In this document: positions 27,015-49,877 of the stretch, piece by piece
Layout: each line of letters starts with the position of its first letter
Numbering within the stretch: position 1 is the stretch's first letter
Assembly: GCA_050950165.1 (NCBI GenBank)
Contig: JBMNHC010000001.1
Coordinates: 124,673 to 188,672 of the forward strand
DNA: 64,000 bases
Reading direction: 5' to 3'
Source of the DNA: Candidatus Dojkabacteria bacterium
GTDB taxonomy: Bacteria > Patescibacteriota > Dojkabacteria > SC72
Position numbers and translations under genes: made by a program
Notes under the pieces: generated by a model
The model's database searches: none
What the model saw: the letters and a program-made list of their open reading frames with translations, nothing else
What the model was told of the DNA's origin: nothing

Positions 27015-27979
27015 AATAGGGATAATGATAGAATAGCTCTCTTAATATACTTACCTGTAGATAATAGACCTCCTCCTAAAAATGTATCTATAAAATAGAA
27101 ACCATTTTTTATACTAAATCCATACTCCTTAATAATCTTAATCATTCTCTTTCTAGCATCTTTAAAATCTTTATGAGTAAACGATTGTAAAAAATAGAGA
27201 AAATCTAAATCTTTTTTAGGAAACCTATCATACATATACTCCCTATCTACATCTTCGTGAGAATCTTTTCCATATCTAAGTTTCTGCTTACACAACTTCC
27301 GTACCGTATATGAAAACACTAACTGATCTATAAGGTACTCATCATAAAGAAGATCTTTCTTACTTCTGTATTCAACTAACACATTAGAGAGAAGATGTAC
27401 TAAATAACCATTAGCAACAATCTGTAAATATAAATCATAGTCCTCAGCATGAAGAAACTTCTCTCTATAGAAGAACTCTTTACTATTCCTAAACATTATA
27501 GATGAATGAACTAAAACATTATTCTCTATTAACTTCATAGTAACATCCACAGGTACTCTCTTGCCCCATGATATCCCTATCTTCCTACCTGATTCATCTA
27601 AGATATTTGCTCTTCCTCCAACAAGGTATACTTCTGGATTAGATTCTAAATATTTAACTTCTGTCTCTATCCTATGAGGGAAAGAGATATCATCAGCATC
27701 ATTTACTGCAATATATTTACCCTTACTAGCCTCAATCGCGATATTTCTCGATACACATCTTTCTAATCTTTTCTTGTTAGTAATTACTTTTACTCTATTA
27801 TCTTTCTTAGCAAATTCATCTAATATTACCTTAGTTTTATCCACAGAAGCATCATTAACAATAACTATTTCAATATTTGTGTATGTCTGTCTAAGAAGTG
27901 AATTTAGTGTTTTTCTTAAACTCTTCTCTCCATTTCTTACTGCCATTATTACCGAAACCAAAGGCTTACTACTTCTCAT
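27011..27979 (-). CDS. Glycosyltransferase family 2.
   Basis: GT2 motifs: VSVIMAVRNGEKSLRKTLNSLLRQTY..IEIVIVNDASVDKT and VNDADD. Confidence 0.8.
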   Translation of the reverse strand: MRSSKPLVSVIMAVRNGEKSLRKTLNSLLRQTYTNIEIVIVNDASVDKTKVILDEFAKKDNRVKVITNKKRLERCVSRNIAIEASKGKYIAVNDADDISFPHRIETEVKYLESNPEVYLVGGRANILDESGRKIGISWGKRVPVDVTMKLIENNVLVHSSIMFRNSKEFFYREKFLHAEDYDLYLQIVANGYLVHLLSNVLVEYRSKKDLLYDEYLIDQLVFSYTVRKLCKQKLRYGKDSHEDVDREYMYDRFPKKDLDFLYFLQSFTHKDFKDARKRMIKIIKEYGFSIKNGFYFIDTFLGGGLLSTGKYIKRAILSLSLF

Positions 27980-29246
27980 CTCTGTATTCTTTTAACTTAG
28001 AATAATATACTAAATACAACACTATTACAGATATTAACTGAACAACCAATGTCACCCATACTACTCCAATATATCCATACTCTCTTACTGCCCATATATT
28101 TAGTACTACATTAATGATACCAGAAACAACATTAAGTACTGCCATAATACTTGCATGACCAGTAGAGGTAATAATGCCAGAGTTAATAGTTGCACCAGGT
28201 ATAACATTTGCATAGGTTAAAGCAATTGGAAAGAGTAAGCTCATTAAAATAGCACCAGAGTACTGAGGTAGAAGAATATGTATTGCTACTTTACTTACAA
28301 TTATGGATATCGGTATAAAGAGAATAGCTAAGAGAGAGAGATAGAGGAGTAACTTCTTAAATGCACTACGTATACTCTCATATTTTCCAGTAGAAAAAAG
28401 TTCAACAACATTAGGAGCAAGAACCTGACCAAGTACTGTAAAGGGTATTAGATACACAATATACATCTTATTAAGCAACTCATACACTGCAATCTCTTCT
28501 AGTAGATCATACTGTCCTAATATTAAGATATTTACTTTAGAAAAAAGGTAATAGCCTAAGGTAGCAATACCGAAATATATTGAATATGTACCAACATCCT
28601 TAAGTATCTTTTTATCAATTCTAAACTCTATCTTCCCATTAAAGATAAAAAGCAATGTTGTCATTATGAAAAAAAGTACAATCTGAGCAAGTATTGCACC
28701 TGTTAATCCATATGTAGAAACCAAAAGATACGATGCTAATATAGAGACAAAGCCACTAGCTAAGGTGATAATAGAAAGAATTTTAAATTTCTTTAACCCC
28801 CTATACACTCCATCAAGCAGAGATGACATAGGAGAGAGAAATACTAACGGTAGAGATACCAGAAGATATTGATAGTAATCTGGAAAGAAATTCTTACCAA
28901 AAAGCAGTGTTAAAACAAATGCTAAGGTAGATATGATTAATATAATAGTGCCAGAATTAAACAGTACTCTCTTTACTCTCTCTTTCTGCACACTATTGTA
29001 CTCCGCTATATACCTAGATGTAGCTGTAGATATTCCGAAATCTGAAAACATTACCAACAGAGTAAGAACAGAAAATACATAGTTGTAAATACCCATATCT
29101 TCTTTAGCAAGAAAGTATGCTGATATAAAAAACATTATTCCACTAGCACCTTGTTTACCAAGAATCTGAACTAATCTCCATACAAAAGATTGAGATAGTT
29201 CTCTATTTTTCTTAAATTTATGTAAAAATAACTCTATTAGATTCAT
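27969..29246 (-). CDS. Polysaccharide flippase (Wzx-like, MOP superfamily).
   Basis: It has about 12 TM helices, and its N-terminal region is typical of the Polysacc_synt family. Confidence 0.65.
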   Translation of the reverse strand: MNLIELFLHKFKKNRELSQSFVWRLVQILGKQGASGIMFFISAYFLAKEDMGIYNYVFSVLTLLVMFSDFGISTATSRYIAEYNSVQKERVKRVLFNSGTIILIISTLAFVLTLLFGKNFFPDYYQYLLVSLPLVFLSPMSSLLDGVYRGLKKFKILSIITLASGFVSILASYLLVSTYGLTGAILAQIVLFFIMTTLLFIFNGKIEFRIDKKILKDVGTYSIYFGIATLGYYLFSKVNILILGQYDLLEEIAVYELLNKMYIVYLIPFTVLGQVLAPNVVELFSTGKYESIRSAFKKLLLYLSLLAILFIPISIIVSKVAIHILLPQYSGAILMSLLFPIALTYANVIPGATINSGIITSTGHASIMAVLNVVSGIINVVLNIWAVREYGYIGVVWVTLVVQLISVIVLYLVYYSKLKEYRDEK

Positions 29247-30280: not shown

Positions 30281-31975
30281 CTAGTTTGCTTTCAACATTT
30301 TCTTTATTTTACCATTCCCATCTTTAACAATTTCTATATTGTTTATTAAATGTGGGACACAGATAGACTCACTATTCCAGCATCTATCACCCTCTTTAGG
30401 TTCACAAATCTCAATTTGTTGATCCACAAATACACAGTTAGTTTCAGGACTCTTATCCATCAAATTATTCCTTATTTCACTTGTCCTAACATACTGAAAT
30501 CCACTACCACTTATCACTGTAAATACAATCGCTATAAAAAATATAATAAAGATTGAGTAATCCTTCTGCTTGTAAACTTCAATGGAAACAAGAACCGATA
30601 AAATGAAAAATGTCCATATTACAGAGAATGCAAACCTTATATCTGGAGCCGTGACAAACCAAAATACTAACGAACTAATAGGTATAATTAATAGTGGAAG
30701 AAACTTATTCTTCAGTTTTGATGATACTAAAGTAAAAAGAGAAAGAATTAAACCAAAAAACAAAGGGAAAACAAAATTCAAAAATTCTAGCTTTTCTTTA
30801 ATCCACACCCTAAGCCATGCATTGTTAGATAGTACCTCTACTGGAGTCCTATGTGGCATACGAGCCCAACTTTTTATCCAGTTACTTTCCGAAGTTGCCT
30901 GATCAATTCCAACACTCCATTCAGTATTAAACCCTAATTTCGGGAAAGGATAGAGCGGAAACCCTGTTAATAGTACTCCACGAAAGACCCAAACTAACAC
31001 ACAAAAAGCTACAAACAGACCCACTAACCAGAAGCGCTTTTCTTTTAATAATGGGACCAAATTATGACTCCTAAATAGAAAATATATTCCTACTATTAAC
31101 GAAAACAATACAAACACAGCAGCACTTAACTTTATACTAAATAGCCCTCCAGATAATAAGAGTAATAATATAAATTTATCCAAAAACCTTCCTTTATTCT
31201 CAATTATTTCTATAAATATACCAATAATGACAAATTGTAATAATACAACAAATGTATCGGGGCTAGAACTTACAAGATATACTCCCTTCTTATAGAATAC
31301 AAAAGGAATTAAGAAGACAAAGACTAAAGACCAATATATATTGTAGCTAGTATTTTCCCGTTTCCATACAAGACTCCATAATTTATAACCTGTGTAAATT
31401 ACTGAAAAAACAAGCATCCCACTAGACACTATCCTAAAACTTTGAGGGATAATGTTAAGATGATCATATACTGAAACTAAAAGAAAAGAAGAATTATTAT
31501 AACCAAATCTACCATGTATATTTGCTAAGCCAAGAATTAACTCTGAACTTTGAAGCCATTTTATTGTTTGTTGATAATAGAGTCCAAAATCATATAATAA
31601 GTTTTCTGAGAATGTTTGATTAGATATCAAAATAATTAAAACTGTAGAACTTAATAAGAAAAGGTAATTTTTCTTAATCCTAGAAATTGTATACTTAACT
31701 ATTTTGGTATTTGCTAATTTAACACAAAACATCACAATTCCTATAAAGACAATCAATAAAGAAAGCACTTTACTAATAGGTAAAAACAAATGAGTTATTT
31801 GCATTAAAAAAATAAGTAATACAAACCCTATCCATAATTTGCTCCAAATAGTATCTATATCGTTCTTGCTGAATTTTTTAATAAAAATAGATCCTATACT
31901 TCCCCAACCCACCAAAGAAGTAAATAAAATAGACCATCCAAATAATAACCTAATGTATAAAAATAATATTTCCAT
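30281..31975 (-). CDS. Polytopic membrane protein (564 aa) with a C-terminal Cys-containing extracytoplasmic domain. It may be a Wzy-type polymerase/ligase or a GT-C enzyme.
   Basis: It has at least 12 hydrophobic helices with no diagnostic motif. The call rests on its position inside the glycan island. Confidence 0.35.
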   Translation of the reverse strand: MEILFLYIRLLFGWSILFTSLVGWGSIGSIFIKKFSKNDIDTIWSKLWIGFVLLIFLMQITHLFLPISKVLSLLIVFIGIVMFCVKLANTKIVKYTISRIKKNYLFLLSSTVLIILISNQTFSENLLYDFGLYYQQTIKWLQSSELILGLANIHGRFGYNNSSFLLVSVYDHLNIIPQSFRIVSSGMLVFSVIYTGYKLWSLVWKRENTSYNIYWSLVFVFLIPFVFYKKGVYLVSSSPDTFVVLLQFVIIGIFIEIIENKGRFLDKFILLLLLSGGLFSIKLSAAVFVLFSLIVGIYFLFRSHNLVPLLKEKRFWLVGLFVAFCVLVWVFRGVLLTGFPLYPFPKLGFNTEWSVGIDQATSESNWIKSWARMPHRTPVEVLSNNAWLRVWIKEKLEFLNFVFPLFFGLILSLFTLVSSKLKNKFLPLLIIPISSLVFWFVTAPDIRFAFSVIWTFFILSVLVSIEVYKQKDYSIFIIFFIAIVFTVISGSGFQYVRTSEIRNNLMDKSPETNCVFVDQQIEICEPKEGDRCWNSESICVPHLINNIEIVKDGNGKIKKMLKAN

Positions 31976-33958: not shown

Positions 33959-36013
33959 ATGAACGTCTTAACTACAGAATTTTCAAAGAACAAAATAATT
34001 ATTAAAAAGAGTAGTAAAATTGCATTTATAATATCAGTTCTACTCTGCCTAATAACAGTGATTGACAAGATATCCCTTTATGGTGCTATAAACTTCTATA
34101 TTCACACTCCTGTTATATATACTCTAATATTTTTCCTTCACTTGGCAGTAGTAAAAGATGAATGGAAAAATATACAGATACTTTTCAAAGAATTACAAAA
34201 AAAGATAACAAAGGAGGATACTATAAAAATATTTTTAATTTTGTTCCCCTTTTTACTTGTAGTATTACTAAAGAATAAATTAAATGAAATCATAATAAAT
34301 CAAAACATTTTATCCTTAGAATACGATTATTTACTTATTATTATTAAAATAAAATTCTTTGCTAAAACCTTTGTTCTCTTTGTTGGTTCTATTCTTACAG
34401 CATTATTTGCAAACTATCTTAATTATTCAATTACTACTAATAAACAGAAGGAAAAAAGTAAAAAGAAGACACTTATACTATTTATCCTTCTAATAGCTCT
34501 ATTTTTATTCGTAAAAGCCTTTTTCATCTTTAACTATGACGGTAATTACCAGGATGATTGGTATCATATTGTAGCAGGGCAAAACTTTTTTCAAGATGGA
34601 ACATTTACAAAAGTAAACCAATATTTTGGTGAAGATGGATATCAAAGAGGTGCATATATGACGATTTTAACAAACTTCTTTATGTTTCTATTTGGAAGAA
34701 GTGTTGATATTGCACAGCTAGCCCCAGCGTTTATAGGATTAATAAATTTCATATTACTATTAACAATTGCAAGAGAAGTCTTTAAGAATAATATTTCTAT
34801 AATATTATTTTCATTCTTATATATTTTTAATCCCTATGTGATATTCAATCATTTATTTATAAGAATGTATGTTTTTTATGAACTTTTCTTTCTTTTAATA
34901 ATCTTTTTATCAACCTCTCTCTATAGGAGTTTGCTAGCAAAAAAGAATACTAAGATAGTCTTAGTCTTCTCAGCACTACTTCTTCTTAATTTTTTTATTT
35001 GGAAATACACAGAAGATAGGAGCACTATACTATTCCCTGTCTATTCTACGATAGGAATTTTCCTTGCTTTTTATAAAGCAATAAATCTAAAAAATTTCTT
35101 TTCAAAAATTTCACAATATATAAATAAAAATAAAAAAGTAATGATACCTATCTTGTTACTTCTTTTTGTATCCATTCTCCTTTTATTAACAGAACTCTCT
35201 TTGTTTACTGAATTGCTATGGCTAATAACACAAGGAACGAATGATGGATCAAATAGAGCTTCTTTAATTAAATTGATTTGTTATAGATTTGCACCCTTAA
35301 TGATGTATGTATTTCTCAGTTTCGTCACGATTAAAAAACATTCTGTATCAAAACAAATTTTTATTATCTTTGCTTTTGTTTCTTTAGTTTTACATATTGC
35401 ACTACCTGAAAGTTATCAGGTGATAAGAGGTTTCAATTATACATGGGGAGTACTTCTAATTGCTACAGTAATAATGATTGAGGAATTAATAAAACAAGCC
35501 GTTACATTAAAAAAGAGTTTACTACTCTTACCTTTGATATTTACATTTTTACTTTCATCATTATTAATTCCAACTATAAAAAGTTATCACAAGACTTTCC
35601 TTTCCACTGGTCCTAGTATTTTAGGAGAAGTAGCATATTATGAATTTGATAAAACATTCTCTTATTTACAAAAAGAGCACAGTAAAGATACAATTATTAG
35701 TATAACTTACAATGTTGTCCCAGATATGTATTATGGTCTACCTTCAAAATATGTTTTTAATGCTAATGGAAAAATCAGTAATTACTACTTTCCTGAAGAA
35801 ATAACTATCTTAAATACTTTAGATGAAGTAGAGTCACTAGCAAGAAAAGAGAATGTTTGTTTTTTATTAAGAGACTATACTTTTGGTGTTTTGGCTGGTT
35901 TCGATGTCGGTACATACATCATTAACAATTACTCTATCGAAAAAATTTATGAGGGGTATAGTATCTGGTGTGAAAGAACACTAGAGAATAAATTGCCCAA
36001 ATCTCTATATTAA
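33959..36013 (+). CDS. Large GT-C-like polytopic membrane glycosyltransferase (684 aa), a presumed partner of the adjacent GT2/GtrA genes.
   Basis: It has more than 12 TM helices and a C-terminal soluble domain. The call rests on the GtrA-GT2 neighbourhood; the motif evidence is weak. Confidence 0.45.
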   Translation: MNVLTTEFSKNKIIIKKSSKIAFIISVLLCLITVIDKISLYGAINFYIHTPVIYTLIFFLHLAVVKDEWKNIQILFKELQKKITKEDTIKIFLILFPFLLVVLLKNKLNEIIINQNILSLEYDYLLIIIKIKFFAKTFVLFVGSILTALFANYLNYSITTNKQKEKSKKKTLILFILLIALFLFVKAFFIFNYDGNYQDDWYHIVAGQNFFQDGTFTKVNQYFGEDGYQRGAYMTILTNFFMFLFGRSVDIAQLAPAFIGLINFILLLTIAREVFKNNISIILFSFLYIFNPYVIFNHLFIRMYVFYELFFLLIIFLSTSLYRSLLAKKNTKIVLVFSALLLLNFFIWKYTEDRSTILFPVYSTIGIFLAFYKAINLKNFFSKISQYINKNKKVMIPILLLLFVSILLLLTELSLFTELLWLITQGTNDGSNRASLIKLICYRFAPLMMYVFLSFVTIKKHSVSKQIFIIFAFVSLVLHIALPESYQVIRGFNYTWGVLLIATVIMIEELIKQAVTLKKSLLLLPLIFTFLLSSLLIPTIKSYHKTFLSTGPSILGEVAYYEFDKTFSYLQKEHSKDTIISITYNVVPDMYYGLPSKYVFNANGKISNYYFPEEITILNTLDEVESLARKENVCFLLRDYTFGVLAGFDVGTYIINNYSIEKIYEGYSIWCERTLENKLPKSLY

Positions 36014-37126: not shown

Positions 37127-38050
37127 CTAAATCTTAATTAATATACCAATTTTTGAATACAACTTTTTCTTTATATACACCCACCCAAAAGAATTGACAG
37201 CTCTATATCTTTTGATAATCTCCCATGTTGGAACACCTGAATATTTATATAAATCCAGTCTCTTTTTTGATGCAAGACTCTCCTGCCTGAATAATAGGCT
37301 CTCATCTTTACTATGAATTCCTGAAGAATCATACCCAATATTATCTACATATGATTTTGTGGTTTGAACACAAACAAGACCTTTCTTAAATTGATGATAG
37401 CTCCATCTAATAGCCCAAGAATCTATTTTCCCTTCTATTTGGGCTTTCAACATCTTTGTTAAATCTTTTCCTCCCTTATTAAACTGTTTCTGTGCATATT
37501 TATTCTCAGAAAAAGAGAGATAATCCTGCACCTCCCAGTCAACCTCGTCCCACCTATCTTTCCAAGTCCCCCAACCAGTTGAACATGGTCTAACATTAAA
37601 AAAGATATCTTCTATATAATACTTGGGGACTTTTACTTGCCTAGTTGTTATCATAAATGCTGTAACAGACCCAATTTTTTTATCATTAGAATAATAATCC
37701 AGCATTTGATTCATTACATTTAGAAAATACTTTTGAGTCAATAAATCATCCTCAAGAACTATAACCTTTCCATACTTGTTTATTACCTCTGTAACACCAC
37801 CTATCACAGAATTTGCCAAACCCTTATTTTTTTCAGAAGCTGTAATTGTTACTTTTTTAAAACCTTTAATTTCTTTTAGTACATTTCTTACTTCTTTAAT
37901 CTTTTCAATATCTGATTCTCTCTTTGGTCCATCAGAATAAATAAATAACTCTGAATCTTTTGCTAACTCATTCTCACTCAATTTAGTAAGCACTTCTTTA
38001 GTGTGCTTTGCCCTATTGTATACAAATAACACTATTGGTGCGTATTCCAT
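37127..38050 (-). CDS. GT-A fold glycosyltransferase (GnT-I/GT13-like N-terminal motif).
   Basis: PIVLFVYNRAKHTKEVLTKL resembles the GnT-I PILV..CDR motif. A DxD-like VLEDDLL is also present. Confidence 0.45.
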   Translation of the reverse strand: MEYAPIVLFVYNRAKHTKEVLTKLSENELAKDSELFIYSDGPKRESDIEKIKEVRNVLKEIKGFKKVTITASEKNKGLANSVIGGVTEVINKYGKVIVLEDDLLTQKYFLNVMNQMLDYYSNDKKIGSVTAFMITTRQVKVPKYYIEDIFFNVRPCSTGWGTWKDRWDEVDWEVQDYLSFSENKYAQKQFNKGGKDLTKMLKAQIEGKIDSWAIRWSYHQFKKGLVCVQTTKSYVDNIGYDSSGIHSKDESLLFRQESLASKKRLDLYKYSGVPTWEIIKRYRAVNSFGWVYIKKKLYSKIGILIKI

Positions 38051-38054
38051 ATTT

Positions 38055-39383
38055 TTATTTCTTTATAAATAATTCTTTAATCTTGAAATAATTCCAAGGT
38101 ACTATCCCTCTAATTATATATAATACTTGCTCTCTTGTATCCTTAAATAGTAATGGGAGAATAAACATATAAAATATCTGGGAAATAATCATAGCTATAG
38201 GAGCTCCTATCGCTCCATACTTTGGAATTAATACATAAAAAAGTATTAAACTAATTGTAGAAGAAAGAATCGAGAAAAAGATTAGATATTTCTGAATATT
38301 CTCCAATATATATATTCTTTGATTTAAAGTTTTTAATGAAACGAAAATACCAATAAATACGTAAACATTAAAGATAGGAATAGATTGAAGATAGCTGGAA
38401 TCAAATATCAATCGCATAAAAGGATCGATAAACAATAAAGTCGCAAGAATTATTAGAAGCGGAACAATAAATAATATACTATAGAAAGTTGGTAAGAGTT
38501 TTTTATAATGTACTCGATCTTGATTATAAACTTTTGTAATCTTGGGGAAAAGTGCAATACAGATTGTTACAGGCAAGAAATACCATATCTCTCCTAGTTT
38601 TGCGGCTACAGAGTAAATTCCAACTTCCGAAAAACTTAATACCTCCTTTATGACAACAACTGCATATCTTGTATAAAAAGTATCAGCTATAAGAGTAATA
38701 AGAATAGGCAATAACGCAAGAAACAACATTTTAGCAACTTTAATATCCACCTCCCAATCCTTAAGATTTCCATACTTTTTTATGTATAGAATCAAAGAGC
38801 CAATCATTATCAATACAAATTCTAAACTATATATAAACAAGAATACTTTTAAACCAGCTCCTAGATAAATAGCAAGTAATTTAAAAACAATTAAAACAAT
38901 ATATACAATCATTCTAATGATAGAAATCTCTCGAGATTGCAACTCCGCTTGAAAGTATTCGTCAATTACTTGCAATGAGGAAAAGATATAGGACCAAGAC
39001 ATAAGAAGAGATAGCATTACAAAGACCAAATTGCCGTCCACCAAATACAGAAAAAGTGCATTCCCAAGTATTGCAATTATTGCCCCAACTAATCTCATAA
39101 CAGCTGCTGTTCCAAGTATTTTCCCCTTCTTAGCATTCTTTTCCAACAACTTTGCCACAACAATATTACTCAATCCAAGAGAGGCTAGAGGTAAGAAAAT
39201 ATTATATACTCCTAAAACATAATTAAATTGACCAAAGACCTCCGTTCCTAAATAAGATGCAACCCTAGCATAAACAAATAGACCAGAAATTAATAATAAT
39301 ATTTTCTCTGCAAGACCCCAGAAGACATTCTTAAATATCTTTTTGCGATCTTCTGTTTGTAGGATAAGATTTCTTAATTGCAC
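38055..39383 (-). CDS. Polysaccharide flippase (Wzx-like, MOP superfamily).
   Basis: About 12-14 TM helices with a Polysacc_synt-like organisation. Confidence 0.65.
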   Translation of the reverse strand: MQLRNLILQTEDRKKIFKNVFWGLAEKILLLISGLFVYARVASYLGTEVFGQFNYVLGVYNIFLPLASLGLSNIVVAKLLEKNAKKGKILGTAAVMRLVGAIIAILGNALFLYLVDGNLVFVMLSLLMSWSYIFSSLQVIDEYFQAELQSREISIIRMIVYIVLIVFKLLAIYLGAGLKVFLFIYSLEFVLIMIGSLILYIKKYGNLKDWEVDIKVAKMLFLALLPILITLIADTFYTRYAVVVIKEVLSFSEVGIYSVAAKLGEIWYFLPVTICIALFPKITKVYNQDRVHYKKLLPTFYSILFIVPLLIILATLLFIDPFMRLIFDSSYLQSIPIFNVYVFIGIFVSLKTLNQRIYILENIQKYLIFFSILSSTISLILFYVLIPKYGAIGAPIAMIISQIFYMFILPLLFKDTREQVLYIIRGIVPWNYFKIKELFIKK

Positions 39384-41212: not shown

Positions 41213-42170
41213 TTATAAACTATAATACCCTTTATACCACTCCACAAATTTACCTATACCCTCGTCTAATGTAATCTTAGGGTCATAACCTAACATCTCT
41301 TTTGCTTTACTAGTATCTGAATATGTTATCAATACATCACCCTTTTGCATAGGTAGTAATTTTTTCTTAGCCTTAATACCCATATGCTTCTCTAATATAG
41401 ATATCATCTCTCCTAAATCATCAGGACTACCCTTACCTAAATTAAAGATTTCATTCTCATATTCACAATCAATAGCTCTAACTACACCATCTACAATATC
41501 ATCTACATATGTAAAATCTCTCTTCAAATCCTTACCGTAGTTAAATACAGGAATCTCCTCTCCTTTTACTCATCTGATTAGCAAACTTAAATATTGCCAT
41601 ATCAGGTCTGCCCCACGGTCCATATACTGTAAAGAATCTTAACCCTATCGTCTTTAATCCAAACAGATGATGATATGTATACGCTATTAACTCATTAGAC
41701 CTCTTACTAGCTGCATACAGTGATATTGGACTATTTACATCCTGTATCTCAGTAAATGGTATATCTGCTGTATTACCATATACACTACTTGATGATGCAT
41801 ATATAAAGTGTTTAATACCTTTATCTTTGGTTAAGTTAATCATATTAACAAAACCAACCATATTACTATCTGCATATACATATGGATTCTCTATTGAATA
41901 TCTAACACCTGCTTGTGCTGCTAAATGACATACTCTATCTATATCATTCTCATCAAATACTTCCTTTAAATCATTAAGTTTAGATATATCTACTCTATAC
42001 AGTTTAAAGTTAGAATATTTCTCTAACTCTTTATTCCTATCTTCTTTTAAACTTACCTCATAGTAATCATTAAAATTATCTACACCTATTACAGTATCAC
42101 CCCTTTCTAGTAATACCTTTGCTAGACTATGTCCTATAAATCCTGCTGTACCTGTTACTAATATTTTCAT
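41213..42170 (-). pseudogene. NAD-dependent nucleotide-sugar epimerase (UDP-glucuronate 4-epimerase-like). It is split into two ORFs (41541..42170 and 41213..41527) by a +1 frameshift in an A4 run on the coding strand, seen on the plus strand as TTTT at 41564-41567.
   Basis: The N-terminal part carries KILVTGTAGFIGHSLAKVLLERGDTVIGVDNFNDYY and YAASKRSNE (YxxxK). Deleting one A restores ...AIFKFANQMSKGEEIPVFNYGKDLKRDFTYVDDIVDG..., which matches the conserved epimerase core. Confidence 0.8.
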
Positions 42171-42262: not shown

Positions 42263-42949
42263 ATGAATACCTTAAATATCAAAAAATTCTTAAAAGATTT
42301 AAAAGAGAACCCTTATGAGTACAAAAAAGTACTACAATTTGTCAAAGACAATACTCCTCAAAATGGAAAAATTCTTGATGTTGGATGTGGATACGGTCGA
42401 TATTTAAAACCTCTAAGTAAAGAATTTAAAAACATAGTCGGTGTTGAGGCAAATAAACTAATAAGAGATACTCTCATACAAAAGGGACTAAAAGTGGTCT
42501 CTCCAGAGAAGTTAGATAGAAAAGAGAGATTTGACACTATTATTATGTCACATATTATAGAACATTTTCATCCTGAAGAACTTATAGAAATGATGGATCG
42601 TTATTTAGATCTCTTAAAGGTAGGAGGATGCATAATTATAGCAACACCAACTCTTACAGAGACTTTCTATATGGATCTTGACCATAAAAGACCATATTAT
42701 CCTCAATCAATAGAAGAAGTTTTTGATGGAAATAACCAACAAATAAAATCTTATTCAAAGAATAGATTGAGAACAGAAAAAATACACTTCAGAAAATCTA
42801 GATTTCAATTGTTCAAAAACTCGCTTTTATTTAACAACACAAAGAATTTGGGAATTGCTATTAATATCCTCCTTGCATTAATATTTAGAATTTCTTTCGG
42901 ATTAATAGGCTATAAAAGTGGATGGATAGGGATATTCAGAAAATTTTAG
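42263..42949 (+). CDS. Class I SAM-dependent methyltransferase.
   Basis: Motif I is KILDVGCGYGRYL, and IIMSHIIEHFHPEEL is also present. Confidence 0.7.
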   Translation: MNTLNIKKFLKDLKENPYEYKKVLQFVKDNTPQNGKILDVGCGYGRYLKPLSKEFKNIVGVEANKLIRDTLIQKGLKVVSPEKLDRKERFDTIIMSHIIEHFHPEELIEMMDRYLDLLKVGGCIIIATPTLTETFYMDLDHKRPYYPQSIEEVFDGNNQQIKSYSKNRLRTEKIHFRKSRFQLFKNSLLFNNTKNLGIAINILLALIFRISFGLIGYKSGWIGIFRKF

Positions 42950-42958
42950 TTCTTTAAT

Positions 42959-44020
42959 CTAAAAAAAGTTAGCATGCCCATCCCTTTCCAATTTCTCAAG
43001 ATCACTCTCTACCATAATATCTACTAATTCTTCTAAAGAAGTTTTAGCTTTCCAACCAAGCTCTCTCTCCGCTTTAGAAGGATTTCCCAAAAGTAAATCA
43101 ACATCTGTAGGTCTAAAATATCTAGGATTAATTCTTACTAATACCTTACCAGTCTTTTTATCCTTACCTATTTCATCTACACCCTTACCCTCCCATACAA
43201 TTTCAAAACCTAATTTCTTACATGTTAACTCTACAAACTCCCTTACGGTATGTGTCTTTCCCGTTGCTATTACATAATCATCTGGTTTCTCTTGTTGAAG
43301 CATTAACCACATTGCCTCTACATAGTCTTTAGCATAACCCCAGTCTCTCTTGGAATCCATATTACCTAACTCTAATACATCCTGCATACCTAACTTAATC
43401 TTACAGAGAGCAGTTACTATCTTTCTTGTTACAAAGTTATGTCCTCTTCTCTCTGATTCATGACTAAACATTATTCCGTTACAAGCAAAGAATCCCTGCA
43501 CATCTCTATAGTGCTTAATCATTAAATGTGCAAACAATTTAGCTATAGCATAAGGACTGTGAGGTCTAAATTCTGTCAATTCAGTTTGTGGAGTCTCTAC
43601 AACTTTACCATACAAATCTGCGGTTGAAGCCTGAAACATTTTGCATTCTTTTTCAATCCCACTTTTTTTGACTGCCTCTAAAATTCTCAAAACCCCCAAA
43701 CCGTTGACATCAGAAGTTAGAATAGGTTGTTCAAAAGAGAGACTAACCTGACTCTGTGCCGCAAGATTATATATCTCATTAGGGGAAATCTCTTTTATAA
43801 TACTTATTAACCCTTCTTCATCTAGTAAATTGCCATAATGTAAAAACAGTCTCTTATTTATAATATTACTATCATTACAAAGATGATCTATAGAAAGTAG
43901 TTTCTTATCTTCTTCAAATATCAAACCATGTATCTCGTAATCTTTTTCTAAAAGAAGTTCTGTAAGAAAACTACCATCTTGACCATTTATTCCTGTAACA
44001 AAAGCTCTATTATTTGACAT
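42959..44020 (-). CDS. GDP-mannose 4,6-dehydratase-like SDR. It is a mosaic copy: the N-terminal half is divergent, and the C-terminal ~160 aa are identical to the downstream gmd.
   Basis: Motifs: [25 protein letters not shown] and SPYAIAKLFAH (YxxxK), then [23 protein letters not shown]... identical to the neighbouring gene. It lacks the canonical RRSS motif. Confidence 0.75.
   Translation of the reverse strand: MSNNRAFVTGINGQDGSFLTELLLEKDYEIHGLIFEEDKKLLSIDHLCNDSNIINKRLFLHYGNLLDEEGLISIIKEISPNEIYNLAAQSQVSLSFEQPILTSDVNGLGVLRILEAVKKSGIEKECKMFQASTADLYGKVVETPQTELTEFRPHSPYAIAKLFAHLMIKHYRDVQGFFACNGIMFSHESERRGHNFVTRKIVTALCKIKLGMQDVLELGNMDSKRDWGYAKDYVEAMWLMLQQEKPDDYVIATGKTHTVREFVELTCKKLGFEIVWEGKGVDEIGKDKKTGKVLVRINPRYFRPTDVDLLLGNPSKAERELGWKAKTSLEELVDIMVESDLEKLERDGHANFF
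42987..43463. repeat. About 477-bp near-identical (1 mismatch) direct repeat shared with 44109..44585, covering the 3' halves of the two tandem gmd genes.
   Basis: Compared directly by eye. The offset is 1122 bp. Identity starts at tccaatttctcaag and ends at ctctgattcatga. Confidence 0.85.
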
Positions 44021-44083
44021 AGTTATGTAGTATATGATTTATCTATTTTTAACATCAGAGAACTATTTTACACCTAAAAGACT

Positions 44084-45145
44084 TTAAAAATAAATCTCTT
44101 CATCCTTCTCCAATTTCTCAAGATCACTCTCTACCATAATATCTACTAATTCTTCTAAAGAAGTTTTAGCTTTCCAACCAAGCTCTCTCTCCGCTTTAGA
44201 AGGATTTCCCAAAAGTAAATCAACATCTGTAGGTCTAAAATATCTAGGATTAATTCTTACTAATACCTTACCAGTCTTCTTATCCTTACCTATTTCATCT
44301 ACACCCTTACCCTCCCATACAATTTCAAAACCTAATTTCTTACATGTTAACTCTACAAACTCTCTTACGGTATGTGTCTTTCCCGTTGCTATTACATAAT
44401 CATCTGGTTTCTCTTGTTGAAGCATTAACCACATTGCCTCTACATAGTCTTTAGCATAACCCCAGTCTCTCTTGGAATCCATATTACCTAACTCTAATAC
44501 ATCCTGCATACCTAACTTAATCTTACAGAGAGCAGTTACTATCTTTCTTGTTACAAAGTTATGTCCTCTTCTCTCTGATTCATGATTAAACAATATACCA
44601 TTACAAGCAAATATATCGTATGCTTCTCTATAGTTTTTTATTATCCAAAAACCATATAACTTAGCTACTCCATATGGACTACGAGGATAGAAAGGAGTTG
44701 TTTCCGATTGAGGAGTTTCTACAACTTTACCATACAACTCTGATGTAGAAGCTTGATAAAACTTTACCTTCTTCTCCATACCCAATGTACGTATAGCCTC
44801 TAGAAGCCTTAATGTCCCTAAAGCATCAATATTAGCAGTAAACTCTGGTAACTCAAAAGATATCTGTACATGACTCTGTGCTGCAAGATTATATATCTCA
44901 TCTGGTTTAATCTGATTTATTATCCTTGTTAAACTCGCTCCATCAGTAACATCACCATAGTGTAAAAACATTCTTTTATCTAATATCTCAGGATTATCAT
45001 AGAGATGATGAATTCTCCATGTATTTACAGTACTTGCCCTTCTAATTAACCCATGTACTTCATAGCCTTTCTCTAAGAGTAACTCTGTTAAAAAGGACCC
45101 ATCTTGACCAGTAATACCAGTTATTAATGCTTTTTTCATAAACAT
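44084..45145 (-). CDS. gmd: GDP-mannose 4,6-dehydratase.
   Basis: Canonical GMD motifs: [47 protein letters not shown] and [12 protein letters not shown]. Confidence 0.9.
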
Positions 45146-45209
45146 TTAGATTAAATTTATATCTTCTTTAGTACAAAGTAATTTAGAACCTGTACCTCAT
45201 ATCGCATAG

Positions 45210-46595
45210 CTATGCCCCTAAGTTATCAAACTTAAATATATTACTCATATATTCTACATCTAAATAGTTTCTAGCATCTAATAACCTTTTCTCTTTCATA
45301 AGAGTAGAAAGATATTCAAAATCTAACTCTTTAAACTGAGGCCAATCTGTAGCCACTACCACTATCTCACTACCTTTAAATACCTCATCTACATCCTCTG
45401 AATACACTAAACCCTTCTCCTCTGGAAATTCTAGCTTTGCTTCTTCTATAGCCTCAGGATCATAACCAACTACACTATATCCCTTCTTTACTAAAGCCTT
45501 ACACAATCTACCTGCAGGAGACATTCTCATATCACTAGTACCTGGCTTAAATGACAATCCCAGTACACCTACCTTGCTTTTTGGAGAAGTCCCCATATCT
45601 TCTATCTTCTGTAAAACAAAATCTACCTGTTCCATATTAACCTGCAAAATAGCCTTAAACAGAGTAGCATCTACATCATGCTCCTCTAAAGATTTAATCA
45701 AACCATTCACATCCTTTGGAAAACAACCACCTCCAAAACCAATACCTGCATACAAAAAAGACCTATTTATCCTTCTATCCATACCAACACCATCCATAAC
45801 CTCTGTAACATTTGCATCTACCTTATCACAAATTCTAGCTATATTATTCGCATATGATATTTTCATAGCCAGCATAGTATTGGAACACACCTTTATTAAC
45901 TCTGCACTCTCTAGTTTAGTACTCATGCACTTCTTGTTAAACTCTACATCTTTTCGGTTGTTATTATGCACATTATTACTAGCATACATACTAATCTCTG
46001 GATTTTTACTAATAATATCGTCTGCTAAAAACTCTATCTTTTCAAATATCTTAAAAACCTTCCTCTTAGCCTCTCTATCATCACCACCAATTACAATACG
46101 ATCTTGGATAATAGAGTCAAGAACCGCTGCACCCTCTCTTAGAAACTCAGGAGATGAAAGATATGCAAATTTAAGTTTAGGATTTACCCTTTTTATCCTT
46201 CTCATAGCTTCTCTACCTGTACCTACAGGAACTGTACTTCTCTGTACAAAAATAGTTCCATCTTTAATATATTTAACTGCACCCTCTACAGCTTCAAATA
46301 TATATCTCAAATCAAAACCACCACTAGGACCACTAGGAGTACCTACACAGAGAAATACAACATCCACATCACTTAACCCTTCTTTATAATCTAAAGTCGG
46401 AATTAAATTACCACTCTGAATACCATACTTAACTAAAGTATCCAACCCTAACTCATAGAAATATGATTTACCCTTCTTGATAGTATCTATCTTCTTCTTA
46501 TCTACATCTATACAGTATGTTTTATACCCTACCCTTGCTAGTAAAGCTGAAAGTGTTAATCCCACATATCCTGTCCCTATTATCGCTATCTTCAT
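45210..46595 (-). CDS. ugd: UDP-glucose 6-dehydrogenase family nucleotide-sugar dehydrogenase, with a ~50-aa insertion.
   Basis: The N-terminal motif is MKIAIIGTGYVGL. The catalytic motif is GFGGGCFPKD. The C-terminal UDPG_MGDP_dh_C-like motif is GLSFKPGTSDMRMSPA. Confidence 0.8.
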   Translation of the reverse strand: MKIAIIGTGYVGLTLSALLARVGYKTYCIDVDKKKIDTIKKGKSYFYELGLDTLVKYGIQSGNLIPTLDYKEGLSDVDVVFLCVGTPSGPSGGFDLRYIFEAVEGAVKYIKDGTIFVQRSTVPVGTGREAMRRIKRVNPKLKFAYLSSPEFLREGAAVLDSIIQDRIVIGGDDREAKRKVFKIFEKIEFLADDIISKNPEISMYASNNVHNNNRKDVEFNKKCMSTKLESAELIKVCSNTMLAMKISYANNIARICDKVDANVTEVMDGVGMDRRINRSFLYAGIGFGGGCFPKDVNGLIKSLEEHDVDATLFKAILQVNMEQVDFVLQKIEDMGTSPKSKVGVLGLSFKPGTSDMRMSPAGRLCKALVKKGYSVVGYDPEAIEEAKLEFPEEKGLVYSEDVDEVFKGSEIVVVATDWPQFKELDFEYLSTLMKEKRLLDARNYLDVEYMSNIFKFDNLGA

Positions 46596-48749: not shown

Positions 48750-49877
48750 ATGACTAAGAAACATTTTTTAGTTCCAATATTAGCCATTTTAATATCTGCA
48801 CTATTTCCAATACATACACATGCTGCAGAATTTCATGATGGTAATTACATCTTAGAGGCAGAGACAATAGTAGAAGATGACCTCTATATAGCTGGAGATC
48901 ATGTAATGATCAAAGGGGTTGTAGATGGAGATGTAGTAATATTTGGACAGAATATCTCAGTAGATGGAACTGTTACTGGAGATCTATACATTTTTGGTAA
49001 TTCCATTAGTATAGGTGGTAGTTCATATGGAAATATTACTGCACTAGGATCAAATGTTAGTATAAAGGGTGCAACTGTAGGACAGAATGTCTTTATCCTA
49101 AGTGGTATGACAGATGTAGATGCTAATATCGGTAAAGATTTAAATGTTGCATCTGGTACAACAAAGATACTAGGAAGTATAGGAGATGATGCTAGAATAC
49201 TTTCAGGGCAGGTTTCTTCTGAAGCTACTGTTGGAGGAGATTTCTTACTCTCTAGTGAAAGTCATAATGTAAATAAAGAGAATGTAAAAGGTCAGTTCAT
49301 ACTCTCTACAGAAGCTCACGATAAGTCACTTGATAAAGATTCTAAGTTCCAACTTAGAAGAGGAGAGCTTCTAGGATTTAATTTAGGGATGGCAATTTTA
49401 TCCTTTGTAGGTATGTATATTGTTGGTGTATTACTAATCTATGTAGCTCCAGTAAAGACACTCTACATTGGTAAAAAGGTTACTAGCTCATGGGAAGATC
49501 TACTAAAAAGCTTTGCTATCGGATTATTAACCTTCATAGCAGTCCCGCTTCCACTTCTAATTCTTGTACTAACAATTGTTGGAGCACCATTAGCAATATT
49601 AATAACAGGAATATTAATATTCTTAGCTACTTTCGGAACCCTCTGGACAGAGATAGCTGTAGGACACAAGGTATTAGAGTTAGTTAAGTACAAAGATGAC
49701 TACAGATTCCTCTCTCTACTAGTAGGAAGATTCCTATCCTCTATTATCAAACTGATACCTCTTGTTAACACCTTCTACGGTCTCTCTCTTAGCATGATCT
49801 CTGTAGGAGCTGTAGTAAGAATGAAGTATGACAACTTTAAATCTAGTAAGAAAGCGAAAAGTAAAAAGAGTAAGTAA
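48750..49877 (+). CDS. Secreted protein with a bactofilin-like beta-helix repeat region, a C-terminal 3-4 TM anchor and a Lys-rich tail.
   Basis: A signal peptide is present (..PIHTHA/AE). The repeats VVDGDVVIFGQNISVDGTVTGDLYIFGNSISIGGSSYGNITALGSNVSIKGATVGQNVFI resemble the bactofilin/DUF583 pattern. Hydrophobic helices span 49350-49800. Confidence 0.4.
   Translation: MTKKHFLVPILAILISALFPIHTHAAEFHDGNYILEAETIVEDDLYIAGDHVMIKGVVDGDVVIFGQNISVDGTVTGDLYIFGNSISIGGSSYGNITALGSNVSIKGATVGQNVFILSGMTDVDANIGKDLNVASGTTKILGSIGDDARILSGQVSSEATVGGDFLLSSESHNVNKENVKGQFILSTEAHDKSLDKDSKFQLRRGELLGFNLGMAILSFVGMYIVGVLLIYVAPVKTLYIGKKVTSSWEDLLKSFAIGLLTFIAVPLPLLILVLTIVGAPLAILITGILIFLATFGTLWTEIAVGHKVLELVKYKDDYRFLSLLVGRFLSSIIKLIPLVNTFYGLSLSMISVGAVVRMKYDNFKSSKKAKSKKSK

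Follow-up and report, generated by a model that had tools for sequence, protein, structure and literature searches.

Interlocus gene conversion, in which one copy of a duplicated gene is overwritten by another, is known from tuf and from the tandem mtrA-1/mtrA-2 genes of methanogens, where partial tracts have also been described (PMC6053082). Here we describe a pair of tandem gmd genes, which we call gmd A and gmd B, in a 64,000-nucleotide stretch (the window) of contig JBMNHC010000001.1 from a genome of Candidatus Dojkabacteria, which belongs to the candidate phyla radiation (CPR; assembly GCA_050950165.1). Both are open reading frames (ORFs) of 353 codons on the minus strand of a surface-glycan gene cluster (Table 1), and both are deposited, as consecutive records on one contig of 724,554 bp, under the name 'MAG: GDP-mannose 4,6-dehydratase [Candidatus Dojkabacteria bacterium]' (MAG, metagenome-assembled genome). 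Like mtrA-1/mtrA-2, the gmd copies stand in tandem and share a tract that covers part of the gene (PMC6053082). Unlike tufA/tufB and mtrA, they are homogenised over only ~45% of gmd A, and few known Gmd sequences are as divergent as the remainder; further, the gmd pair was found in one genome, and recurrent, long-lasting conversion across species is not evidenced. We conclude, with a probability of about 80%, that the two gmd genes are genuine tandem paralogs with a recent conversion tract running from B to A, and that A has probably diverged in function. The mechanism is not new, and the pair is a new instance of ordinary gene conversion.

The shared block was delimited by a gapped nucleotide alignment and by comparison of the two genes at a fixed offset of 1122 nt. 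Over its 477 nt, 475 positions are identical (99.6%), and both mismatches (T at 43157 against C at 44279, and C at 43241 against T at 44363) are synonymous third positions; the A and B proteins are identical across the block. The longest exact run inside it is 222 nt, and the pair is the only repeat of at least 60 nt in the window. Its edges are sharp (42986/42987 and 43463/43464), with mismatches at 42986 and at 43464 that become dense further out, and the 5' edge of the tract falls in the very codon of the FNHES motif in which A has serine for asparagine. In protein terms, the tract is roughly the substrate-binding half and covers most of the GDP-sugar-binding C-terminal half. Outside it, the 5' halves (186 codons) of A and B share 103 of 186 residues (55.4%) and 64.5% of their DNA positions. 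At the nucleotide divergence of the 5' halves (35.5%), the block would be expected to hold ~169 differences, and the probability of finding two or fewer is 6e-87. By the method of Nei and Gojobori, the synonymous (dS) and nonsynonymous (dN) distances between A and B are 0.021 and 0 in the block; in the 5' halves they are about 1.8 (saturated) and 0.335, giving a ratio (omega) of about 0.18. The initial annotation had recognised the two genes as a tandem mosaic with strongly diverged 5' halves, which we confirm, but had counted one mismatch (99.8%) in the block and about 50% protein identity in the 5' halves, both of which the values above replace. It had also called A the upstream copy, which is true of the plus strand only, as transcription runs from gmd B to gmd A. 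Its proposal of a recent conversion onto an old duplication is borne out by the gap between a dS of 0.021 in the block and one of about 1.8 in the 5' halves.

The direction of the conversion was read from the relationship of each part to orthologs at related loci, here denoted by L numbers (proteins by P numbers). Gmd B is a canonical Gmd in every feature tested: it scores 584.7 bits against TIGR01472, for which the equivalog cutoff is 415, and 520 bits against PF16363; it carries GITGQDG, GLIRR, T-S-E, YGVAK, FNHES, and RRG; of the 85 columns that reach 95% conservation or more across 166 Gmds, it departs from none; and its orthologs P0123, P0124, and P0139 are 87-93% identical and syntenic. 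The block is close to the L003/L004 orthologs (92% amino acid identity, dN 0.03, dS 0.64-0.68), and so is the N-terminal half of B (89-95%, dN 0.02-0.06), whereas the 5' half of A is 52-57% identical in amino acids to B and to every ortholog alike. This indicates that B was the donor, identifiable by its congruence with its own flank, and A the acceptor. The dS of the tract (0.021), compared with 0.64-1.28 to orthologs and 1.8 in the flank, is the pattern expected of interlocus gene conversion. At both mismatched positions, B keeps the state of L003 and L004 and the state of A is absent from these two closest orthologs; the simplest reading is that A acquired both changes once it had been converted. 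Further, codon identity at sites with the same amino acid in the 5' halves is 50%, which equals the distant-ortholog baseline and argues against any recent exchange there.

We propose the following course of events. B is the ordinary GDP-mannose 4,6-dehydratase of the lineage and A an old, strongly diverged copy, the 3' 477 bp of which were recently overwritten by the matching stretch of B, probably through non-reciprocal homologous recombination of the RecA type between the tandem copies. The tract (477 nt or less) would end where homology, or tolerance, ends, and A would then have gained its two synonymous changes. The 5' half of A, with the cofactor site and catalytic residues, escaped homogenisation, its frame being kept open by selection.

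A repeat of this kind could also arise in assembly, by concatenation of strain variants of one locus or by a mis-join at the repeat that swapped the 3' half of A for that of B. The 222-nt exact run is longer than typical short-read k-mers, which makes the region difficult for assemblers; other public assemblies contain odd gmd ORFs that are partly duplicated internally (P0122 and P0241); and a nearby gene carries a single-base frameshift. However, the sequences 5' of the starts and 3' of the stops are unrelated between the copies, so that they do not form a strain bubble; both junctions are in frame; A has a 3' tail of its own; the copies differ at the two positions given above; and the contig is long. 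A mis-join, moreover, would require the true 3' half of A to be near-identical to that of B already, which leads to the same biological conclusion. We therefore regard an artefact as very improbable.

As a whole, gmd A matches PF16363 and clears the TIGR01472 equivalog cutoff (473.9 bits). Scored on its own, its N-terminal half reaches 220.5 bits (330.1 for that of B) and its C-terminal part, derived from B, reaches 235.7; it is therefore the converted half that earns A its equivalog status. Of 67 N-half columns with 95% conservation or more in the same 166 Gmds, 14 are departed from by A and none by B. We next compared the motifs that define the family (PMC3584063, PMC8987622, PMC9415975), counting each over the homologs in which it could be located (roughly 315-380). 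First, the arginine pair of GXXRR, which is RR in 335 of 349 homologs and FE in none, is replaced in A by G32-L-I-F35-E36 (GLIFE), and the loop-closing arginine is serine (R43S), so that A has neither the motif nor the RR loop, which contact the cofactor and the neighbouring monomer (PMC3584063). Second, the signature [ST]-S-E (377 of 378 homologs, the remaining one SRE) is T133-A134-D135 in A; its glutamate is the single additional acid/base of dehydration (PMC3584063; PMC8987622 Table 1), and neither xAD nor any aspartate at this site occurs among the 378. Third, the adenine-binding aspartate of HxGD (350 of 351) is asparagine in A, which reads HYGN for HYGD. Fourth, the asparagine of FNHES (314 of 314) is serine (FSHES). 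These are four features that A has lost and that essentially all of the other Gmds examined retain. The stretch of A between residues 34 and 57, IFEEDKKLLSIDHLCNDSNIINKR, aligns position for position with the RR-loop stretch of B and is one residue shorter; it is a near same-length replacement and not the insertion that had been described. Likewise, A does lack the RR of a motif initially given as RRSS, but B itself has RRAS.

Other features of A agree with those of the family. It keeps the Wierenga glycine motif GXXGXXG (G10-INGQD-G16), T133, and Y157-AIA-K161, as expected for an enzyme in the SDR (short-chain dehydrogenase/reductase) superfamily, and the HES-RRG arginines. The residues of Gmd that contact GDP are Asn179, Val190, Lys193, Arg218, Arg279, and Glu282, and the FNHES asparagine is among those listed (PMC9415975). 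The GDP-contacting positions within the block are identical in A to those of canonical B; the FNHES asparagine lies one codon outside it. An AlphaFold2 model of A has a predicted local confidence (pLDDT) of 92.7 and a predicted template modelling (TM) score (pTM) of 0.91, and a Foldseek search matched it to Gmd structures (TM 0.96 to human GMD 5in4). In length, too, A resembles canonical Gmd. These features would suit a second, fully active dehydratase isozyme, maintained for dosage or regulatory redundancy, that tolerates its odd residues, of which the Glu to Asp exchange is conservative. Against this stand the motif counts given above and the fact that A clears the family cutoff only thanks to its B-derived half, and we consider such an isozyme possible but doubtful.

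In the model of A, strand beta2 ends at F35, and E36, E37, and D38 come right after the strand. By the established coenzyme rule for SDR enzymes, acidic side chains at this place go with a preference for NAD(H), and basic ones with a preference for NADP(H). The cofactor handling of A has therefore probably changed, and, judged from its sequence, A is probably not a standard NADP-clamping dehydratase, although it is predicted still to bind a GDP-hexose through its B-type C-terminal half. The altered cofactor or substrate behaviour suggested in the initial annotation thus gains in substance as a prediction, A alone, among the homologs counted for each motif, being without GXXRR, the glutamate of [ST]SE, the aspartate of HYGD, and the asparagine of FNHES. 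A fails two defining Gmd motifs, and its filing as an equivalog should therefore await an assay; by sequence, it is no Rmd either. That A is a re-tooled enzyme of some kind is a tentative proposal, and we hold the three functional readings of A (second dehydratase, re-tooled enzyme, and non-catalytic or decaying copy) to be about equally likely.

On the last of these readings, A would lack catalytic activity or be in decay, and the conversion, neutral and incidental, would have partly 'repaired' the gene. The many departures of A at conserved sites agree with this, as does an omega that is 3-6 times that of B (0.03-0.06 against its orthologs in the 5' half), and the frameshifted epimerase nearby, together with the missing fcl and a missing methyltransferase (see below), suggests that the cluster has been remodelled or eroded. 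On the other hand, the 353-codon frame of A is intact at 35.5% nucleotide divergence in its 5' half: when the 5' half of B was mutated neutrally to this divergence, none of 2000 simulated sequences kept an open frame, and only 3% did so at 10% divergence. The open frame and an omega far below 1 indicate that the 5' half of A has been selected as coding sequence for most of its history, and the Thr/Tyr/Lys triad and the glycine motif are kept. Decay is unlikely in our view. Further, the direct repeat is expected to make the locus unstable towards a 1122-bp deletion, and its persistence suggests either that the conversion is recent or that A is under selection.

Where the N-terminal half of A came from was pursued by database searches. 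Nothing above 56% identity was found with it in a word-index search of 5.8 billion protein clusters, in an exhaustive phmmer search of 1.84 billion cluster representatives, or with A-specific peptide patterns in 185,579 species genomes and in the metagenomes of the Joint Genome Institute (JGI). The word-index search missed the record of A itself (P0185) and is thus not fully sensitive, a gap partly covered by the pattern scans and by a search with B as the query, which did return A. Over all proteins collected, the best identity to the N-terminal half of A is 59% (P0190, a homolog found with B as the query). The top phmmer match, P0241, was discarded, as its high score comes only from an internal duplication. 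In P0241 (347 aa) and P0122 (545 aa), both from other organisms, the central region is partly duplicated in tandem within the gmd ORF; the duplications could be real or assembly artefacts, and they inflate the homology scores of both proteins. Two divergent Gmd-like proteins, P0377 and P0381 (loci L069 and L068; their contigs, of 3.2 kb and 1.7 kb, are too short to show genomic context), lack the GXXRR arginines and keep the [ST]xE glutamate; they are 46-47% identical to A, and P0381 shares KLFAH.MIK.YR with it. A neighbour-joining tree of the N-terminal halves was built, but the placement of A in it was unstable, with long-branch attraction to P0377 and P0381, and we rejected the tree as evidence of origin.

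These searches bear on whether A, or its 5' half, was recently transferred from an unsampled lineage and then recombined with the resident B, an option that had been raised at the outset. None of the relatives has an A-like gene, the N-terminal half of A is about equally far from B and from all orthologs of the B clade, and strings such as SFEQPILT and KLFAH.MIK are common to A and to Aquifex-type and RR-less Gmds. However, no candidate donor above 59% identity was found in the cluster, species-genome, and JGI metagenome searches, and the best matches of the N-terminal half fall in the same broad Gmd subfamily as B. Third-position GC (GC3) is 0.220 in both 5' halves, and the overall GC of the A half also matches that of B, which makes the 5' half of A compositionally native. 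The nine-codon tail of A outside the tract (...DGHANFF) differs from that of B (KDEEIYF) and is nearer to the L003/L004 tail (KKDGEAYF; B-clade DGEAYF), which hints, if only weakly, at A being an old resident duplicate. The foreign option is weakened by these results and we consider it improbable. A may be a long-resident duplicate that changed at an accelerated pace, or it may have been imported long ago; import in recent times is disfavoured.

To place the pair in its genomic context, we read six related loci in five assemblies (L001, L003, L004, L064/L065, L066, and L067). They share a backbone of DsbA, DUF8173, a family 2 glycosyltransferase (GT2), a UDP-glucose-dehydrogenase-like gene, a variable slot, gmd, a second variable slot, a 318-aa SDR epimerase, and a family 4 glycosyltransferase (GT4), and most also have a further GT2 gene and a flippase. 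Each of the six has one gmd only, and the two slots that flank it are hypervariable among these genomes. The slot 3' of gmd is taken by a homolog of GDP-L-fucose synthase (fcl) in L003 and L004, and the other related loci have no gene there; in the window, it is occupied by gmd A. As in L004, a methyltransferase then follows, the convergent gene next to A having 53% protein identity to the reverse-strand methyltransferase after fcl in that locus. In the slot 5' of gmd, the window (45146-45209) lacks the ~213-aa methyltransferase that stands between the dehydrogenase-like gene and gmd in L001, L003, and L004. A tblastn search of the window with Fcl as the query returned no fcl. The contig of 724,554 bp carries none of the Fcl homologs that rank as the 120 best (58% identity or more), and the gene cluster holds no aminotransferase and no rmd. 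The position of A thus recalls the gmd-fcl pair of GDP-L-fucose synthesis, but A is unrelated to Fcl beyond the SDR superfamily, and a tblastn search with A gave no match to the fcl genes of L003 or L004; the idea that A is a remnant or derivative of fcl was rejected. We note that the fcl homolog of L004 (1744-2660, on a contig of the ANAN16 metagenome) itself appears disrupted, with residues 1-158 and 198-311 in different frames and ~40 residues missing. The 318-aa epimerase is present in five of the six related loci, directly after gmd or after fcl. In the window (41213-42170, minus strand; 83-89% amino acid identity to L001 and L003), it is split into ORFs of 209 and 104 aa by one extra A near 41564-41567 (AGTAAAAGG compared with AGT-AAAGG in L003), and is either a pseudogene or the product of a base-call error.

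Because gmd A lies in the slot that fcl takes in L003 and L004, and the searches here gave no fcl, the most concrete guess at a re-tooled function is a 4-keto reductase acting on the product of B. A would in that case be a GDP-4-keto-6-deoxy-D-mannose 4-reductase, or another enzyme of the 4-keto intermediate, with exchangeable NAD(H); as a specific assignment, this is speculative and unlikely. Some Gmds reduce their own product to GDP-D-rhamnose, i.e. are naturally bifunctional reductases (PMC3584063; PMC9415975). The absence of an aminotransferase and of rmd from the cluster also speaks for a reductase, and Rmd, an extended SDR that acts on the product of Gmd, has no RR loop and, in the Pseudomonas aeruginosa enzyme (6x3b), has S-G-D where A has T-A-D.

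Several points weigh against the reading set out above, in part or as a whole. The S-G-D motif is not diagnostic, as the other solved Rmd (2pk3), from A. thermoaerophilus, has S-S-E at this site, and A is only 25% identical to Rmd (85 bits to 6x3b) and far nearer to Gmd (E = 6e-120 to Gmd 2z1m, compared with 1.9e-28 to 2pk3). Several relatives that have no adjacent fcl have no A-like gene either, and a replacement of fcl by A is therefore not required; the failure to find fcl is limited further by direct inspection having covered 64 kb of the 724-kb contig. With respect to origin, neighbour-joining bootstraps of the N-terminal half mostly joined A to long-branch, RR-less proteins and placed it with the group of B and its orthologs in 14%, and A has 3 of 10 clade-signature residues and 3 of 13 B-specific residues, which is uninformative. 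Omega is unreliable at a saturated dS. Finally, the deposited assembly is the sole source for the tandem arrangement.

The features of the locus are listed in Table 1. No promoter-like or terminator-like site was found by scanning the 63-nt spacer between B and A or the other junction of the dehydrogenase-like gene, B, and A, which lends weak support to their co-transcription; a promoter-like site lies ahead of the dehydrogenase-like gene (46659-46631, minus strand), which is likely the first gene of this transcription unit. Alignment of the B-A spacer with the spacer upstream of B revealed no convincing similarity. A 271-aa ORF antisense within the dehydrogenase-like gene (45574-46389, plus strand) is almost certainly spurious. 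More widely, the pair lies in a large region of glycan assembly (27000-48700), where many genes code for GT2 and GT4 enzymes, two encode flippase-like proteins of the Wzx type (27969-29246 and 38055-39383), and one encodes a LIC_10190-family membrane protein (30281-31975); the ORFs at 33959-36013, 37127-38050, and 48750-49877 have no family match.

Table 1. Features of the gmd pair and its surroundings, in window coordinates unless a comparison locus is named
Feature	Position	Strand	Description
gmd B	44084..45145	-	canonical GDP-mannose 4,6-dehydratase; donor of the shared block
gmd B, NCBI record			MGI6423157.1; 351 aa; start set at the third codon
gmd A	42959..44020	-	mosaic paralog MGI6423156.1; own divergent N-terminal half and B-derived C-terminal half
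Tract, acceptor copy in A	42987..43463	-	third base of codon 186 to codon 345
Tract, donor copy in B	44109..44585	-	counterpart of 42987-43463 in A
N-terminal half of A, residues 1-186	43464..44020	-	Rossmann/cofactor domain and catalytic residues; orphan
A residues 34-57, IFEEDKKLLSIDHLCNDSNIINKR	43850..43921	-	replaces the GXXRR motif and RR loop
A T133-A134-D135	43616..43624	-	stands where the GMD signature [ST]-S-E (catalytic acid/base Glu) is expected
A own 3' tail, E-RDGHANFF and stop	42959..42986	-	outside the tract
B-A spacer, 63 nt	44021..44083	-	between the gmd genes
Nucleotide-sugar dehydrogenase (UDP-glucose 6-dehydrogenase-like)	45210..46595	-	TIGR03026, 400 bits; syntenic in all relatives
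Methyltransferase	42263..42949	+	Pfam Methyltransf_23; convergent, abuts the stop codon of A
~213-aa methyltransferase, L001	7340-7984		comparison locus
~213-aa methyltransferase, L003	4409-5050		comparison locus
~213-aa methyltransferase, L004	15-656		comparison locus
Reverse-strand methyltransferase after fcl, L004	2660-3301		comparison locus

General knowledge of gene conversion is unaltered by this pair, and its added interest lies in the orphan, motif-deviant half of A and in the trap it sets for annotation, since a partial conversion can mask a functionally diverged paralog from profile-based annotation. With respect to genome stability, a direct repeat of 477 bp predisposes the locus to deletion and assemblies of it to collapse. 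With respect to evolution, a reduced CPR genome here offers a clean example: the tract ends no further than one codon from the last functional residue to diverge (Asn to Ser in FNHES), and it divides a substrate-binding half that was homogenised from a cofactor and catalytic half that is protected and putatively re-tooled. If A has a new activity, it would represent a second, independent route from the Gmd scaffold to an enzyme of the 4-keto intermediate, and the predicted surface glycan would change. If, more specifically, A is a reductase, it would take the step of Fcl and shift the surface sugar from L-fucose to D-rhamnose or 6-deoxy-talose; conversion by B would keep the GDP-hexose-binding half 'fresh' while selection guards the re-tooled cofactor and catalytic half, and the gene would be a natural, domain-level split between concerted and divergent evolution.

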